A DNA stretch of 64,000 nt from a bacterium (GTDB lineage: Bacteria; Patescibacteriota; Minisyncoccia; UBA6257; Colwellbacteraceae), in the NCBI GenBank assembly GCA_021787205.1, contig JAJYME010000007.1, positions 74,334 through 138,333 of the forward strand. The letters run 5' to 3'. Position 1 is the stretch's first letter; each line of letters starts with the position of its first letter. The notes under the pieces are model-generated. The model ran no database searches. It was not told the DNA's origin and saw nothing but the letters and a program-made list of their open reading frames with translations. Shown one piece after another: positions 10,108 through 56,931 of this stretch. A program made the position numbers and the translations under genes.

Positions 10108-11016
10108 TTAAACGGTAAGGTAGCGACGGACGACAATAACGGAAGAAATGACCCCGATACCGACGGCAAATAAGAGATTCAAGCCCAAAAAACCGAAAAT
10201 ATGGGTGATAAAATAGCTCCACATACTGAACTCAGGGATAATAACCCTGATAGCCGGGTTTGCCCAGAGGACAAACGGAGTGGTGATAATCGTCGCCAAG
10301 AAAGCGGAGACGATTCCGTAGATGGCACCGACGATAATATAAGGACCGCGCACGAAAGCGTTGGAGGCACCGACGAGTCTCATTATCCCGATCTCATCCT
10401 TATTGCTGTTGATAGCAAGGAGGATGGTGTTGAAAGAAACGATACCGGCGACAATCGACATGACGACAATCAGGATAAAGCCCATGCTCCTGCCGACATC
10501 CATGATCCTCGACAATCTCTCAATGACGGTCTGGTTCTGGCTGTAGCTGACATTAGTCACCATATTCTTGAATTTTTCATCCTTGAAATAATCGGCGATG
10601 ACGGCATAGCCTTTCGGATCATGAGCTTTGATATTAAGCGAAGCCTGAAGAGGGTTGCTCTCAATCTCTTGCAAAGCCCTTGTGACATCCTCATCACCAG
10701 CATGCCTTTCCTTGAACTTCTCCAAGGCGGCATCCTTCGAAATATAAGCGACCGATTTTACTTCGGGCATCTTTTCTAAAACGCCTTTAACCTGGAGAAC
10801 GTCATCTTCACTGACTGAATCGGCGAAGTCGACGCTGATGTCGATCTTATCCTTGATCGTCCCTAAAGACCTGTCTCCGATGACGCCGAAAATAAGAAGC
10901 CCTTGAAAGACGATAACGGCCAAAAGCATGACCAAAACGGTAGCGATGGAAACCAGATAGTTTCTGAGAAAATTCTGCAATCCATACTTAAAGACTCTGT
11001 ATAAAGTAGTGACCAT
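10108..11016 (-). CDS. ftsX: cell-division ABC transporter permease FtsX
   Basis: 302 aa, four TM segments with a large periplasmic loop; immediately downstream of and overlapping ftsE. Confidence 0.85.
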   Translation of the reverse strand: MVTTLYRVFKYGLQNFLRNYLVSIATVLVMLLAVIVFQGLLIFGVIGDRSLGTIKDKIDISVDFADSVSEDDVLQVKGVLEKMPEVKSVAYISKDAALEKFKERHAGDEDVTRALQEIESNPLQASLNIKAHDPKGYAVIADYFKDEKFKNMVTNVSYSQNQTVIERLSRIMDVGRSMGFILIVVMSIVAGIVSFNTILLAINSNKDEIGIMRLVGASNAFVRGPYIIVGAIYGIVSAFLATIITTPFVLWANPAIRVIIPEFSMWSYFITHIFGFLGLNLLFAVGIGVISSVIVVRRYLTV

Positions 11017-13287: not shown

Positions 13288-13360
13288 GCCGAAGTAGCTC
13301 AGCTGGTAGAGCAATGCTTTCGTAAAGCAGAGGTCGCGAGTTCGAATCTCGCCTTCGGCT
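13288..13360 (+). tRNA. tRNA-Thr (CGT)
   Basis: GCCGAAG-TA-GCTCAGCTGGTAGAGC-A-ATGCT-TTCGTAA-AGCAG-...-GCGAG-TTCGAAT-CTCGC-CTTCGGC-T. Anticodon loop TTCGTAA with a 27:43 mismatch. Confidence 0.75.
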
Positions 13361-13370
13361 CAGTATAAAG

Positions 13371-13397
13371 GGCGAGATTCTCGCCTTCGGCTCAGTA
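13371..13397 (+). repeat. partial direct duplicate of the tRNA-Thr 3' end, 18 nt after the tRNA, preceded by an inverted T-stem copy
   Basis: 13378-13397 TTCTCGCCTTCGGCTCAGTA repeats the 3' end of the gene at 13346-13365 (ATCTCGCCTTCGGCTCAGTA). GGCGAGA at 13371-13377 is the reverse complement of the T-stem 3' strand. Confidence 0.55.
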
Positions 13398-15588: not shown

Positions 15589-15699
15589 CGTGCGTTTCTT
15601 TTATTGTAGCCCTTTTAAGAAACTTTTTATAACAAAGAAACTCCTTGGTTTTCCGCAAGAAACAATCTTATCCACAGACCACCCTTTTTGAGAAATAAA

Positions 15700-15727
15700 T
15701 TGTCAATCTCCCAAAACCGCTTAAAAT
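15700..15727 (+). promoter_or_regulatory. consensus-like plus-strand promoter in an intergenic region with no annotated plus-strand gene
   Basis: TTGTCA, 16-nt spacer, TAAAAT. A transcript from it would end at the hairpin terminator at 15830-15866, about 135 nt downstream. Confidence 0.35.
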
Positions 15728-15810
15728 CTACAAAATACCTCCCGCCATCATGGGGATAAGTGAAATAACCGCAAAAAACAGGAAAAAATACCCGGAGATA
15801 GAAGCAACAG

Positions 15811-15884
15811 TTCGATTCCCGCCTCATCCTTATATAAAAATACCCGCATAGGATGCAGGTATTTTTGATGAGCGAGTAGCGGGA
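15811..15884 (+). repeat. copy A of a ~74-bp direct repeat (right-flank-like TTCGATTCCCGCCTCATCC + terminator hairpin + antisense tRNA-Gly 3' end); copy B is 15991..16064
   Basis: The two copies differ at two positions (the g/a and a/g in TACCC[g/a]CATAGGATGC[a/g]GGTA) and lie 180 bp apart. Copy B runs into the real tRNA-Gly gene. Confidence 0.6.
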
Positions 15885-16009
15885 CGCTAGCTATCTCACG
15901 TCGCGGAAGTGTCCGCTCCTATGAAACCCACGGTTTCATAAACATCCTTCACGGAAGGGATACCTTCATCTCCCTTCCGACCCATCCCTATTCGATTCCC
16001 GCCTCATCC
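15866..16009 (+). repeat. tRNA-associated element copy L3: direct copy of the tRNA-Gly 3' end, a diverged core with hairpin TATGAAACC-CAC-GGTTTCATA, then an inverted copy of the tRNA-Gly T-arm
   Basis: Left flank 15866-15884 TGATGAGCGAGTAGCGGGA equals the antisense of the tRNA-Gly 3' end. The core aligns with L1 (TCACGTCG...CTCC-hairpin-AA.ATCCT-.ACGG...TCCC-CGACCC). Right flank 15985-16009 CCCTATTCGATTCCCGCCTCATCC shares TTCGATTCCCGC exactly with the tRNA-Gly T-arm. Confidence 0.5.
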
Positions 16010-16046
16010 TTATATAAAAATACCCACATAGGATGCGGGTATTTTT
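16010..16046. terminator. bidirectional hairpin terminator after tRNA-Gly (-), also closing the L3 element (+)
   Basis: A-run, TACCCACAT-AGG-ATGCGGGTA stem, T-run; an identical architecture occurs at 15830-15866. Confidence 0.55.
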
Positions 16047-16050
16047 GATG

Positions 16051-53394: not shown

Positions 53395-53628
53395 TTATTT
53401 ATCTAGCCATTCTTCTTTAGGAATCCCCGATTGTATAATTATTGATCTTAAGGTTTTCGGATTAATCACATCCCCTTTATGAAATGGTATCGTGACGATT
53501 CTTTCCTGCCCGTTGTAAAAACAAGAATAGTACATATGGCTGCCTCTCATATGAGTATTTGAAAACCCATATTTTTTGAGAAATCTCATAACATCCTCAG
53601 CTCTCCAATTTAACAATCCTCTTACCAT
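53395..53628 (-). CDS. hicA: HicA-family mRNA interferase toxin
   Basis: FLKKYGFSNTHMRGSHMYY...VTIPFHKGDVINPKTLRSIIIQSGI matches the HicA/YcfA consensus (RGSH, VP.H, L..IlkqaG). Confidence 0.7.
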   Translation of the reverse strand: MVRGLLNWRAEDVMRFLKKYGFSNTHMRGSHMYYSCFYNGQERIVTIPFHKGDVINPKTLRSIIIQSGIPKEEWLDK

Positions 53629-53630
53629 AT

Positions 53631-53960
53631 TTATGCGGTTACGAGTCTTTTATTCATATTAAGTTCGCCAAATGTAAATATTCTATTTTTGTTTTTTTCA
53701 GTTTCACGCTCCTCCCACATTATCGTATACTCCTTATCGGGAACCTGATTTAGAACATCTGGTCTCGCTTTTACTTTAATAGCGGTCTCAACATATCCTT
53801 TCAATGCCTCAAAGAGAAGCATCATTGCTTCTTGAGGAGTTGACCCCGTCTCAACAATATTAAACTCCAATCCTACAGCAAACCAATCATTGCCCTCTTT
53901 AAAAACAATATATCTCACCGAACCCTTTTGAAGAGTATTTTTATATCGCTTTATTGCCAT
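53631..53960 (-). CDS. hicB: HicB-family antitoxin (UPF0150 / RNase H-like N-domain)
   Basis: 109 aa immediately upstream of hicA with a 3-bp gap. YIVFKEGNDWFAVGLEFNIVETGSTPQEAMMLLFEAL fits the HicB N-domain pattern. Confidence 0.6.
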   Translation of the reverse strand: MAIKRYKNTLQKGSVRYIVFKEGNDWFAVGLEFNIVETGSTPQEAMMLLFEALKGYVETAIKVKARPDVLNQVPDKEYTIMWEERETEKNKNRIFTFGELNMNKRLVTA

Positions 53961-54574: not shown

Positions 54575-55297
54575 TTAGATTATTTTAAGGGTTTCCGTCA
54601 AGTCTTCCGGCAAATCCGCCATTATTTTGACCTTTTTCCCCTTCCGGTCGATAAAAGACAGCTGGTGACAGTGGAGAAACTGACGATTAAGCTTAAGCTC
54701 GGTCTTTTTCTCCTTCTTGCCGCCATAAAGCTTATCTCCGACAATCGGATGCCCGATTGAGGCTAAATGGACCCTGATCTGGTGAGTGCGCCCGGTTTTC
54801 GGGCTTACTTCCAGCAAGGTGAACTCTTGATACCTCTTTTTGACCTTATATCCAGTCTGAGCATCTTTCACCATCTTGCCGCCATGGATGGTCCTTTTGG
54901 TGGTGCCGCTTATAAGCCCGATAGGCTTATCAATCACCCCCTCGTCATTCTTGACCTCGCCAAAGACGAGAGCGAGATAAGTCTTATGCATCTCCGCCTG
55001 CTGGAAAAGAGATTTGAGATAATCAAAAGATTCCTGGCTTCGGGCCACAAGCATAGCGCCAGAGGTCTCTTTATCAAGCCTATGGACAATGCCCGGACGG
55101 AATTCGGGATCGTCGCCGACCGTTTTCGTTTCTGGATAGTTCTTAACAATCCAATCAGTCAGATATACTTCGCCCTCCTTGTCGCCCTCCTCCCTTTTGG
55201 CCTTAGCTTCCTCCAAATGCTTGATGCGATGGACGGTGACGCCATAGGGTTTGTTAATGGCGATATAATCCTTGTCTTCTTTAATAACTTCTATCAT
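54575..55297 (-). CDS. RluA-family pseudouridine synthase (second copy)
   Basis: HRLDKETSGAMLVA catalytic motif; 240 aa without an S4 domain. Confidence 0.85.
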   Translation of the reverse strand: MIEVIKEDKDYIAINKPYGVTVHRIKHLEEAKAKREEGDKEGEVYLTDWIVKNYPETKTVGDDPEFRPGIVHRLDKETSGAMLVARSQESFDYLKSLFQQAEMHKTYLALVFGEVKNDEGVIDKPIGLISGTTKRTIHGGKMVKDAQTGYKVKKRYQEFTLLEVSPKTGRTHQIRVHLASIGHPIVGDKLYGGKKEKKTELKLNRQFLHCHQLSFIDRKGKKVKIMADLPEDLTETLKII

Positions 55298-56121
55298 TAG
55301 TCTAGAAAAATCTTATTTGCTTTTATTTTCGAACCAAAGAATCCGCTCCCAAGACTCTCAAACTTCTCTGTTAGATCGGTAGTATAGAATTCAGTCACGC
55401 CATTACGGCTCAGCCTTGAATCAATTTCACCGTCCCTGCTTAAATAATCAATCAACTTCTTGGGAACAACCTTTTCACTGGAGATGATTTCGATCTCATC
55501 ACCAACCAGGCCTCTTATCTTGTCTTCCAAAATCCCGTAATGAGTGCACCCTAAGATTAGCGTGTCTATCCCCTCCTCGATTAAGGGATCAAGGTATTTT
55601 TTAAGAAGAAAGTCGGCGGCCGGAGAGTCGTGTTCGCCCTCCTCGATCAGGGGAACTAAGAGCGGGCAGGCATTCTGATATATCTCCGCCTGGGGAAAAA
55701 TCTTCTTGATTTCCCTAATGAACGCCCCAGACTTGACCGTACCTTCAGTAGCGATGACGCCAATCTTTCCATTCTTCGATCTTTCAACTGCTTCTTCCGC
55801 TCCCGGGATCAGGACGCCAAGCACCTTCTTCTTGGGATAGAGTTCGGGCAAATATTCCTGCTGGATTTTGCGAAGAGCCTCGGAAGAGGCCGTATTGCAA
55901 GCAAAGACGACGAGCTCGCAGTCATTCCTAAATAGAAAATCAGTCGCTTGTTTGGAGAACTCATAGATGACATCTTGCGAGCGGGCGCCATAAGGAGCCC
56001 GGGCGGTATCGCCGAGATAAACGAAATCATATTCCGGCATTTCTCTCACTATCCCTCGGAGAACATTTATCCCCCCGAAGCCAGAGTCAAAAACGCCGAT
56101 ACTTTTTTTGTCCTTGTTCAT
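55297..56121 (-). CDS. murI: glutamate racemase
   Basis: IGVFDSGFGG and CNTAS motifs. Start at the internal Met MNKDKKSIGVF (56121) rather than the track start 56163. Confidence 0.9.
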   Translation of the reverse strand: MNKDKKSIGVFDSGFGGINVLRGIVREMPEYDFVYLGDTARAPYGARSQDVIYEFSKQATDFLFRNDCELVVFACNTASSEALRKIQQEYLPELYPKKKVLGVLIPGAEEAVERSKNGKIGVIATEGTVKSGAFIREIKKIFPQAEIYQNACPLLVPLIEEGEHDSPAADFLLKKYLDPLIEEGIDTLILGCTHYGILEDKIRGLVGDEIEIISSEKVVPKKLIDYLSRDGEIDSRLSRNGVTEFYTTDLTEKFESLGSGFFGSKIKANKIFLD

Positions 56122-56188: not shown

Positions 56189-56219
56189 AACAAAAGGCCG
56201 CAACAATCACGTTGCGGCC
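56189..56219 (-). terminator. hairpin terminator immediately upstream of murI, closing a GC-rich minus-strand region
   Basis: GGCCGCAAC-AATCAC-GTTGCGGCC stem followed by TTTTGTT on the minus strand. Confidence 0.5.
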
Positions 56220-56220
56220 A

Positions 56221-56570
56221 GGGAGATCATCCAACCTTCTTTCTCGATCTCGGCTCAGCCACTCCGGAGAGGACCCGGTTCGTGTAACGCCGTCCGCGCC
56301 CGCAGGTGACCTCAACGCTCCCGACCGCCCTTACAGCACGAACGGACTGATCGAAACCACACAGGAGCGGCCAACGGCAACAGCTCAGAACGCAAAGCGC
56401 CTTCCGGGGAGTCATCCTCCTAGCGAAACGGACCCAGTCCATAAAACCGAACTTCTTCATAAACCCCCACTCCTCTCTTTGGGTCAAGCCGAAAATTAAT
56501 AAAAATTTCTGATTCCAGTCTAGCATGACGGGATAAAAATACAAAATCCCGCCCTTTCGGATAGGATTTT
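56221..56570. ncRNA. GC-rich ~330-nt putative structured RNA of unresolved identity and strand; RNase P RNA is a candidate
   Basis: Sharp local GC excess in an AT-rich genome, and the only ORFs are compositionally implausible. The plus strand shows RNase-P-like motifs in the right order (GTAACGCC; GCAACAG..GCAAAGCGCC; TAAACCCCCAC; CAAGCCGAAAAT; CTAGCATGAC; ACAAAATCCCGCC). The minus strand shows GGAGGATGACTCCCCGG (cf. GGAGGAAAGTCCGGG), a possible P4 pairing with a bulged U, and a 3' terminator. Neither reading is complete. Confidence 0.3.
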
Positions 56571-56571
56571 T

Positions 56572-56710
56572 GCGGGTGATACCGGACATCAAACAAATTT
56601 CTCTTAAACAAGAAATTTCATAAAACCTCTCGGTTTTATGGGAATCCTATGCGGGGAAAACCACCAGACATTTCTCCCAGACCCCTTTTCGGTTCGAGTC
56701 CTCATCGCCA
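56572..56710 (+). repeat. tRNA-associated element copy L2: degenerate direct copy of the tRNA-Val 3' end, a core with the identical 9-bp hairpin, and an inverted copy of the tRNA-Val T-arm/acceptor end
   Basis: Core hairpin CATAAAACCTCTCGGTTTTATG at 56619-56640, identical to L1. The core aligns with L1 throughout (..GRAAATCCTAT.CGG.GAAAACC.CC......TT.TCCC..ACCCC.TTTCGGTTC). Right flank CGGTTCGAGTCCTCATCGCCA shares GGTTCGAGTCC and ATCGCC exactly with the tRNA-Val 3' end. Left flank GCGGGTGATACCGGACATCAAAC matches the antisense tRNA-Val end at 16 of 21 positions. Confidence 0.5.
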
Positions 56711-56715
56711 TAAAT

Positions 56716-56746
56716 AAAACCCCTCTTGCGAGGGGCTTTATTTTTT
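56716..56746. terminator. bidirectional intrinsic terminator between the L2 element (+) and tRNA-Val (-)
   Basis: AAAACCCCTC-TTGCGA-GGGGC stem followed by TTTATTTTTT. Confidence 0.65.
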
Positions 56747-56747
56747 G

Positions 56748-56821
56748 TGGGCGATACTGGACTCGAACCAGTGACCTTTACAATGTCAATGTAACGCTCT
56801 AACCAGCTGAGCTAACCGCCC
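56748..56821 (-). tRNA. tRNA-Val (GAC)
   Basis: Reverse complement GGGCGGT-TA-GCTCAGCTGGTTAGAGC-G-TTACA-TTGACAT-TGTAA-AGGTC-ACTGG-TTCGAGT-CCAGT-ATCGCCC-A. Confidence 0.8.
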
Positions 56822-56859
56822 TCAATTGTCTTTATAAATTCCGCGGAGCGAAATTTATG

Positions 56860-56931
56860 TGGGCGTACTTGGAATCGGACCAAGGACCTCTGTCTTATCA
56901 GGACAGCGTTCTACCACTGAACTATGCGCCC
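56860..56931 (-). tRNA. tRNA-Ile (GAT)
   Basis: Reverse complement GGGCGCA-TA-GTTCAGTGGTAGAAC-G-CTGTC-CTGATAA-GACAG-AGGTC-CTTGG-TCCGATT-CCAAG-TACGCCC-A. Confidence 0.8.

Follow-up and report, generated by a model that had tools for sequence, protein, structure and literature searches.

The tRNA-Val locus and its surroundings

L2 is a stretch of hairpins and tRNA-derived repeats that lies between murI (55297-56121, minus strand) and a tRNA-Ile/tRNA-Val pair in the window, by which we mean the whole 64-kb stretch of DNA analyzed. Both tRNA genes are on the minus strand: tRNA-Val(GAC) (56747-56821), the 3′ end of which is copied at L2, and tRNA-Ile (56859-56931), its partner in the tRNA-Ile/tRNA-Val unit. 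The MurI, LepA, and DprA proteins have relatives that place the source organism in the Parcubacteria/Paceibacteria, near Candidatus Colwellbacteria. For the repeats, we use X for the tRNA segment from T-loop to trailer, X′ for its inverted copy, and H for the block composed of X, the terminator or spacer, and X′ (H1 is proximal to the tRNA, and H2 distal). On the murI side, H2 ends with its outer arm, a decayed inverted copy of the tRNA-Val 3′ end (56504-56529, plus strand), which was recognized by its alignment with the proximal inverted copy: GACTGGAATCAGAAA (distal) aligns with GACTCGAACCGAAA (proximal), within a ~90-nt direct repeat formed by H1 and H2 (~68% identity). H2 also includes a hairpin (T2; AAAATCCCGCC-CTTTC-GGATAGGATTTT, 56543-56571, both strands) with A/T runs on both sides, a decayed duplicate of the tRNA-Val terminator; T2 aligns with the tRNA-Val terminators of the source genome and its relatives, and it is the terminator portion of a weak match to the rnk leader. 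The left arm, TGCGGGTGATACCGGACATCAAAC (56571-56594, plus strand), is an antisense copy of the tRNA-Val segment from T-loop to trailer, i.e., a direct repeat on the tRNA strand; it deviates from tRNA-Val by about four transitions and one indel, and has a direct-repeat score of 29 (null 95th percentile: 19). The unit had initially been delimited at 56572-56746; with the decayed second tRNA end, terminator, and inverted copy, it is larger and reaches left to ~56504.

The segment between the two arms (all on the plus strand) consists of a variable linker hairpin P0 (AAATTTCT/AGAAATTT, 56595-56618), the position of which is taken by unrelated hairpins in the other copies of the family; the P1 hairpin (CATAAAACC-TCTC-GGTTTTATG, 56619-56640, 9 pairs); a joining segment (56641-56651) conserved in the five-copy alignment, with the consensus RAMWTCCWWYR followed by CGG; the P2 hairpin (56652-56680; 10 pairs, three of them mismatched in L2, and a 9-nt loop); and a conserved 3′ tail, ACCCCTTTTC (56681-56690), the ACCC of which is invariant in all five copies. 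The right arm (56691-56710, plus strand) is a sense copy, in orientation opposite to the gene, of the tRNA-Val sequence that starts at G52 in the T-loop and ends at the discriminator base. Small deletions affect the junction of T-stem and acceptor, and the inverted-repeat score is 25 (null 95th percentile: 19); the arm pairs with the left arm, closing the element. The initial annotation described this flank as an exact copy of the tRNA-Val T-arm and acceptor end, and GGTTCGAGTCC (11/11) and ATCGCC (6/6) of tRNA-Val are indeed present, in opposite orientation; but the copied segment is not the T-arm, since the 5′ strand of the T-stem is absent and only the T-loop and the 3′ strands are represented. 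Between the right arm and tRNA-Val lies a two-way intrinsic terminator of the tRNA-Ile/tRNA-Val unit (56711-56746, both strands), identified by the terminator scan and by comparison with a relative (locus L015); the scan places the hairpin CCCCTC-TTGC-GAGGGG, followed by a T-run, at 56720-56746.

A GC-rich block (56196-56470; GC 0.58-0.68 vs. ~0.46 in the window), with a strong bias of A over T and C over G on its plus strand, stands where relatives have a DUF2164 gene. It has neither an Rfam nor a Pfam match, its fold is not significant (z-scores of -0.3 and -0.8), and it is unlike all other sequence that we fetched (it is not homologous to the GC-rich inserts of the relatives). It had been proposed that L2 may be the 3′ extension of a plus-strand RNA encoded by this block. 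However, the block has a single terminator, which is on the minus strand (56196-56219); our searches revealed no plus-strand promoter ahead of any copy of the element; and the hairpin with T-runs on both strands at 56543-56571, between the block and L2, would stop a plus-strand transcript coming from the block, so L2 is not its 3′ extension. The layout offered as the other possibility, a free-standing unit with the order flank-core-flank-terminator-tRNA (minus strand) as at L3, is the one that our analysis bears out. Public annotation places a 120-aa gene at 56227-56592 (GC-rich block plus left edge of L2) and one of 54 aa at 56638-56802 (L2 core plus tRNA-Val); neither has a family match, and both are probably spurious. 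Elsewhere in the window, a HicA toxin gene (Pfam E 1e-12) and its small upstream partner are located at 53395-53960, between tRNA-Leu and a DUF1294 gene.

The core family and its arrangement at tRNA genes

Three copies of the ~100-nt core are found in the 64-kb window, L1 (tRNA-fMet), L2 (tRNA-Val), and L3 (tRNA-Gly), and two further copies in a relative that we call species B (LepA 89% identical to that of the window; loci L016-L019, L011, and L022), one beside tRNA-Gly and one beside tRNA-Thr; the family thus comprises five copies in two species. All five are located downstream of, and antisense to, the neighboring tRNA gene, within ~20-45 nt of the tRNA 3′ end, and each is flanked by an inverted pair that is the T-loop-to-trailer segment of that very tRNA. 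A BLAST search with 56451-56830 against the window aligned 56619-56703 (L2) with 3491-3575 (L1) at 83.5% identity over 85 nt (E 7e-21; alternatively, 72 of 88 columns), and the P1 hairpins of the two copies are identical (22/22). So the repeat and the shared hairpin that were first noticed are real, but the two cores are not near-identical, as they had been called: their true identity is 82-84%. A degenerate pattern of the P1 hairpin and the next motif has three sites in the window (3495, 15923, and 56623) and none in 100 shuffles; a covariance model built from L1 and L2 retrieved L3 (E 2.5e-10) and no other new match in the window; and two covariance models (R1 and R2) found the five copies, and no more, in ~197 kb from the source genome and relatives. 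Scans of public genome, metagenome, and viral collections with the exact P1-to-P2 pattern gave 2, 5, and 0 matches, respectively, all coding or unrelated, and added no new members. Rfam searches (at the gathering score and at E<=10) around L1, L2, L3, and the tRNA-Thr copy of species B returned no consistent match, the weak ones being neither common to the copies nor at gathering score; Pfam has no match for the element, and a full-text literature search found no description of such an element, which does not prove that none exists.

On the plus strand, the order of the parts is left arm, a conserved ATCTCACG-like start (degenerate in L2), P0, P1, joint, P2, ACCC tail, and right arm, the last starting at G52/G53 of the tRNA T-loop. 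Across the five copies, 91.6% of the cells in P1 and P2 are paired. Changes on both sides occur in 11 of the 19 pairs (4 of the 9 pairs of P1; 7 of 10 in P2, which has 9-10 pairs), and changes on one side only in none; shuffled and slid controls scored far below the real alignment. Given that no pair changed on a single side, there were no G-U steps, which weakly favors hairpins formed by DNA.

L1 (3453-3582, plus strand) has exact arms and lies downstream of the initiator tRNA-fMet (3623-3695, minus strand); L3 (15810-16049, plus strand), downstream of tRNA-Gly, is composed of H2 (15810-15884), the core (15885-15990), the inverted arm (15991-16009), and a terminator (16010-16049). The arms of L1 and L3 match their tRNAs exactly over 18-19 nt, and they continue into the genomic trailer instead of CCA, indicating that they were copied from DNA. 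Local alignments revealed the same plan at every locus (tRNA 5′ part, H1, core, and H2), in which the tRNA 3′ end, in two inverted copies, forms a palindrome centered on the core. Since H is specific to each locus and the core is shared, the tRNA-derived parts come from the target and not from the element. At tRNA-Gly, H1 and H2 are identical at 72 of 74 positions in the window and at 64 of 64 in species B, with 64% identity between the H blocks of the two species; H1 and H2 of tRNA-Val are ~68% identical. At 13362-13397 (plus strand) in the window, a palindrome without a core is accompanied by a further copy of the tRNA-Thr 3′ end, at a position where species B has a full element; in that species, H2 of tRNA-Thr is followed by what appears to be a decayed second core. 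Remnants of still older blocks lie farther out at L3: past its H2, at 15690-15810, the window contains a degenerate terminator and inverted tRNA-end pieces that are orthologous in locus L031 of another relative, so the tRNA-Gly array is older than that split. The arrays are polar, with the freshest unit nearest to the tRNA; alternatively, gene conversion keeps the two blocks alike.

We tested 25 tRNAs from the window and the fetched loci, and direct and inverted copies of the 3′ end were significant only where an insert is present; 17 other tRNAs that were tested had no such copies of their own 3′ end downstream. Downstream of tRNA-Asp in the window (region 3790-3869), its 3′ end recurs as a decayed inverted copy at 3846-3869, preceded by an insert of ~55 nt. 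This insert did not match the core, even with filters off, and was rejected as a member of the family; it may represent an element that is older or of another kind. A C1:A72 mismatch, as in initiators, is present in the tRNA at 3623-3695, which also has its own strong promoter-like sequence (TTGACA-17-TACAAT; 3737-3709, minus strand).

Occupied, empty, and core-less sites in related genomes

Besides species B, we compared species C, which is closer to the source genome (LepA 92-93% identical; loci L015 and L031), relative D (locus L028), and the more distant relative E (locus L027). The tRNA-Val site is occupied in the window and empty in L015 and in species B. At the start of L015 are the tRNA-Val 3′ end and a terminator stem-loop that is the same as in the window (CCCCTCGCAAGAGGGG, 16/16), and DUF2164 and murI come immediately afterwards; in species B, tRNA-Val has a plain terminator, followed by a restriction-modification system, the DUF2164 gene, and murI. 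The presence of the stem-loop in the element-free L015 indicates that the terminator beside L2, a genuine hairpin with a T-run that the initial annotation had assigned to the element as its own, is native to tRNA-Val. The tRNA-Gly site is occupied in the window and in species B, and core-less in L031 of the closer relative, where we found the orthologous terminator and a short inverted copy (GCGG-ATCGAAT), without the core and without the second block; the distal sequence of L031 aligns well with the window. At tRNA-Thr, which is occupied in species B, the window keeps just the palindrome GGCGAGA-TT-CTCGCC and the second 3′ end copy; this remnant corresponds to the two arms of species B, with the core removed between AATCTC(A/G)C repeats. 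Judging from these comparisons, L2 is a lineage-specific insertion, and cores can vanish while the palindrome stays.

Several other features of these loci were observed. Relative to species B, an in-place inversion affects the tRNA-Thr gene together with its flank (13288-13397 in the window; 14868-15110 in L017), between an acetyltransferase gene and a pyrG-adjacent gene. Unrelated GC-rich hairpin inserts lie behind tRNA-Gly and tRNA-Thr in L028; the inserts at 10192-10310 and 16864-17140 of L028, and at 5984-6129 of L027, are all GC-rich and hairpin-rich, and one has perfect inverted repeats of 25 nt. The tRNA-Gly insert of L027, which follows an inverted tRNA-end copy, was rejected as a family member (its core remained unmatched even with filters off). 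In this clade, tRNA 3′ flanks seem to serve generally as a landing zone. Short-read contigs from the source species and its nearest relatives (the starts of L009, L010, L020, L021, L024, and L025, and the end of L030) break inside tRNA-Ile or just past tRNA-Gly, which suggests that the repeats at these loci disturb assembly.

Among the five copies, L2 is the most decayed and oldest-looking: three of the 10 pair positions of its P2 are unpaired, its arms deviate from tRNA-Val (those of L1 and L3 are exact), and its DNA fold is the weakest (z-scores of -1.5/-2.4, vs. -3.6 to -6.8 for the other copies). The degraded P2 and the ~68% identity of its H1 and H2 mark it as an old copy, and its initial description as the best-conserved one had to be reversed. 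For comparison, only 36.5% of the four-fold degenerate sites of lepA are identical between the window and species B, so neutral sites are saturated. The tRNA-Gly cores of the two species are nevertheless 75-79% identical, with P2 and the tail identical at 28 of 28 positions; they are either under selection, or recent insertions in both species that derive from active lineages related to each other. That H1 and H2 are nearly identical favors recent insertions over selection. The suggestion that the copies have been spreading or undergoing gene conversion finds support here: copies have spread and been lost, and their flanks have undergone gene conversion or been duplicated anew, given that sites are occupied in some and empty in other close relatives, and that the flank blocks are 97-100% identical within a genome and 64% identical between species.

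Interpretation and comparison with known systems

The best explanation for these observations is an element composed of the P0, P1, and P2 hairpins and conserved single-stranded motifs, lodged just downstream of tRNA genes. We infer in part that L2 is a decayed copy of a ~105-nt non-coding, non-autonomous, site-specific mobile DNA element, a reading that we consider to have about an even chance of being correct. The element comes and goes between close relatives, and older units decay farther away from the tRNA; this, the several tRNA targets with matching arms, the freshly duplicated blocks, the covariation restricted to Watson-Crick pairs, and the lack of a consistent way of being transcribed all argue for mobility. 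The folded single strand would be recognized and moved by an enzyme encoded elsewhere, with the conserved T-loop sequence as the junction; the target might serve as template for the arms, for instance if synthesis folds back at the terminator hairpin and H is duplicated afterwards. L2 would then be an old insertion behind the native terminator of tRNA-Val, now decaying. Neither the window nor ~130 kb of the relatives yielded a gene for a transposase, recombinase, or reverse transcriptase, and we know of no transposition mechanism that yields an inverted as well as a direct target duplication of 20-75 bp, so the proposed mechanism is conjectural. Other observations speak against mobility: the native terminator at tRNA-Val leaves the origin of the inverted copy unexplained, the identity of P2 and tail in the tRNA-Gly copies and of P1 in L1 and L2 could equally mean selection for a host function, and the family numbers just five copies from two species.

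More tentatively, and with considerable doubt, we propose that each insertion writes the terminal inverted repeats anew from the target, the element itself not carrying them. A ~105-nt core that forms hairpins would seek out the T-loop region behind a tRNA gene, and fold-back priming at the terminator, then duplication of the whole palindrome (resembling the duplication of repeats at the CRISPR leader), would place new inverted and direct copies of the tRNA 3′ end around it. If true, such target-written repeats would represent an undescribed mechanism of transposition or homing, in a phylum with very few known mobile elements.

The main rival to a mobile element is a functional structured RNA, a less probable alternative, in which the core is a 3′ trailer co-transcribed with the tRNA, or an antisense RNA, with a closing stem that mimics or sequesters the acceptor/T-arm end, acting for example in 3′ processing, CCA addition, or tRNA stability. 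The strong covariation of P1 and P2 would suit an RNA, as would the identical P2 and tail of the tRNA-Gly copies despite saturated synonymous sites. In L1 and the tRNA-Thr copy of species B, no terminator intervenes between tRNA and core, and co-transcription with the tRNA is to be expected. Two A.C mismatches on the core strand become G.U pairs on the tRNA strand, although the informative cells are too few to decide the strand by wobble pairs. The plus strand spells, in order, the 5′ strands of acceptor and T-stem, the core, the T-loop, and the 3′ strands of T-stem and acceptor, so that arms and core amount to an interrupted tRNA minihelix. On the other hand, there is no core-strand promoter to be found, and strong terminators part the tRNA from the core in three of the five copies (L2, L3, and the tRNA-Gly copy of species B). 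The element is dispensable, being lost or absent at orthologous tRNAs of close relatives; deletions in the arms break the acceptor helix, and the arms of L2 have been left to decay. Tandem arrays decaying outward and duplicated blocks of 64-74 nt are also unexplained by a structured RNA, and no Rfam family matches. Two narrower candidates were rejected: a tRNA-like or tmRNA-like gene (ARAGORN and Rfam find only the true tRNAs, the T-arm is interrupted, and the arms follow the genomic trailer instead of CCA), and the primer-binding site of a retroelement (the L3 arm runs into the trailer CATCA, not CCA).

It is improbable, in our judgment, that the loci are scars of an integrase acting at tRNA 3′ ends, i.e., that a miniature cis-mobilizable element with its own copy of the tRNA end integrated repeatedly and built the arrays. 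Tyrosine integrases that target tRNAs classically cross over in the T-loop, and the direct repeats of the tRNA 3′ end around the insert, the junctions in the T-loop, and the polar arrays with the freshest unit by the tRNA would all fit. But the terminator next to tRNA-Val is native, so the proximal block was not brought by an element, and the X-terminator-X′ block is locus-specific while the core is shared, so the tRNA-derived part came from the target. The inverted copy is left unaccounted for, we saw no integrase gene in the window or in ~130 kb of the relatives, and a double-stranded circle of 180 bp would be an unlikely substrate for recombination. We consider it very unlikely that the structures are passive by-products of palindrome extension, slippage, and gene conversion around tRNA terminators, lacking any dedicated mobility, with the core spreading just by ectopic recombination through the T-loop sequence common to tRNA loci. 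Such an origin would account for blocks bounded by T-loop sequences with a self-complementary center (TCGA or TTCGAA), which might serve as short slippage repeats, for the loss of the window tRNA-Thr core between AATCTC(A/G)C repeats, and for the concerted evolution of the H blocks; yet the same core occurs at four tRNA species (fMet, Val, Gly, and Thr) with arms matching each, its hairpin pairing is kept by compensatory changes, and most tRNAs of the same genomes have no such structures.

The architecture, in which a shared core has arms taken from the adjacent tRNA and duplicated palindromic blocks stay identical within a genome, is unusual and fits none of the families compared below; it points either to a novel mode of target choice and copying, or to a novel class of tRNA-linked structured RNA. 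The genomes of Patescibacteria are tiny and thought to be poor in mobile DNA; a family of small elements gained and lost at tRNA genes as species diverge reveals an active source of genome change in these bacteria. The element also seems to break short-read assemblies at tRNA loci, and it yields spurious open reading frames in the public record.

Like REP, BIME, and REPIN sequences, which are mobilized by RAYT (HUH) transposases, the units described here are small, non-coding, and extragenic, form long hairpins from two inverted repeats around a spacer, occur in arrays of alternating orientation with alternating short and long linkers, and lie at the 3′ ends of transcription units, near terminators. 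A REP, however, is one family sequence throughout a genome, a single shared palindromic unit; here, the units copy the adjacent tRNA (the arms are fMet-, Val-, Gly-, and Thr-specific) and it is the spacer, the core, that is conserved. No RAYT (Y1 HUH) gene is present in the window and its ±10-kb flanks. MITEs share the size (~100-180 bp), the lack of coding capacity, the multiple copies, the bounding inverted repeats, and presence or absence among close relatives; in our family these repeats are locus-specific and tRNA-derived. They differ in that the terminal inverted repeats here derive from the target, the flanking duplication is 18-75 bp and palindromic instead of a fixed 2-10 bp, the sequence examined contains no transposase of an autonomous insertion sequence, and no parent insertion sequence is known for the element. 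IS200/IS605-derived, palindrome-associated elements have subterminal hairpins, lack inverted repeats and duplications, and go with TnpA/TnpB or an omega-RNA; here, P1 and P2 could be subterminal hairpins, but arms and duplications are present, and a single weak match to IS605-orfB-I (11.8 bits, vs. a gathering score of 94) is at chance level.

Integrative elements that target tRNAs, and their derivatives without an integrase (CIMEs), also insert at the tRNA 3′ end, with direct repeats of that end flanking the insert, junctions in the T-loop, and tandem accretion. Our element is ~100 times smaller, has no integrase that we could find, and has an extra inverted copy; and whereas those elements bring the tRNA-proximal copy of the 3′ end and the sequence after it, the proximal terminator here is native, being the same at tRNA-Val in the element-free relative. 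Nor does a terminator travel with the element, since the terminator or spacer differs at every locus and pre-dates the element at tRNA-Val. The resemblance to integron attC sites and to attP(+) of CTX phage lies in an imperfect inverted repeat that folds into a stem imitating a double-stranded target, with bulged bases and a variable central part. Unlike attC, the element has no R′/R″ boxes: instead of RYYYAAC...GTTRRRY, its inner ends read GTTCGAG, GTTCAAT, GTTCGAT, and GTTCTAA, in which the fourth base is C and not a purine. We found neither an integron integrase nor an Xer context, and what the stem imitates is the end of a tRNA gene, not attI or dif. Finally, the arms on the plus strand spell strands of acceptor and T-stem and the T-loop, as in tRNA-like minihelices (the tmRNA domain and viral 3′ structures), although ARAGORN and Rfam do not detect them, the core interrupts the T-arm, the acceptor 3′ strand is partly deleted, and the arms follow the genomic trailer and not CCA. 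Taken together, the element resembles REP/BIME/REPIN sequences, MITEs, tRNA islands, and single-strand att sites, and lacks a defining feature of each; we could match its arrangement, with arms that are inverted copies of the 3′ end of the neighboring tRNA, to no described element.
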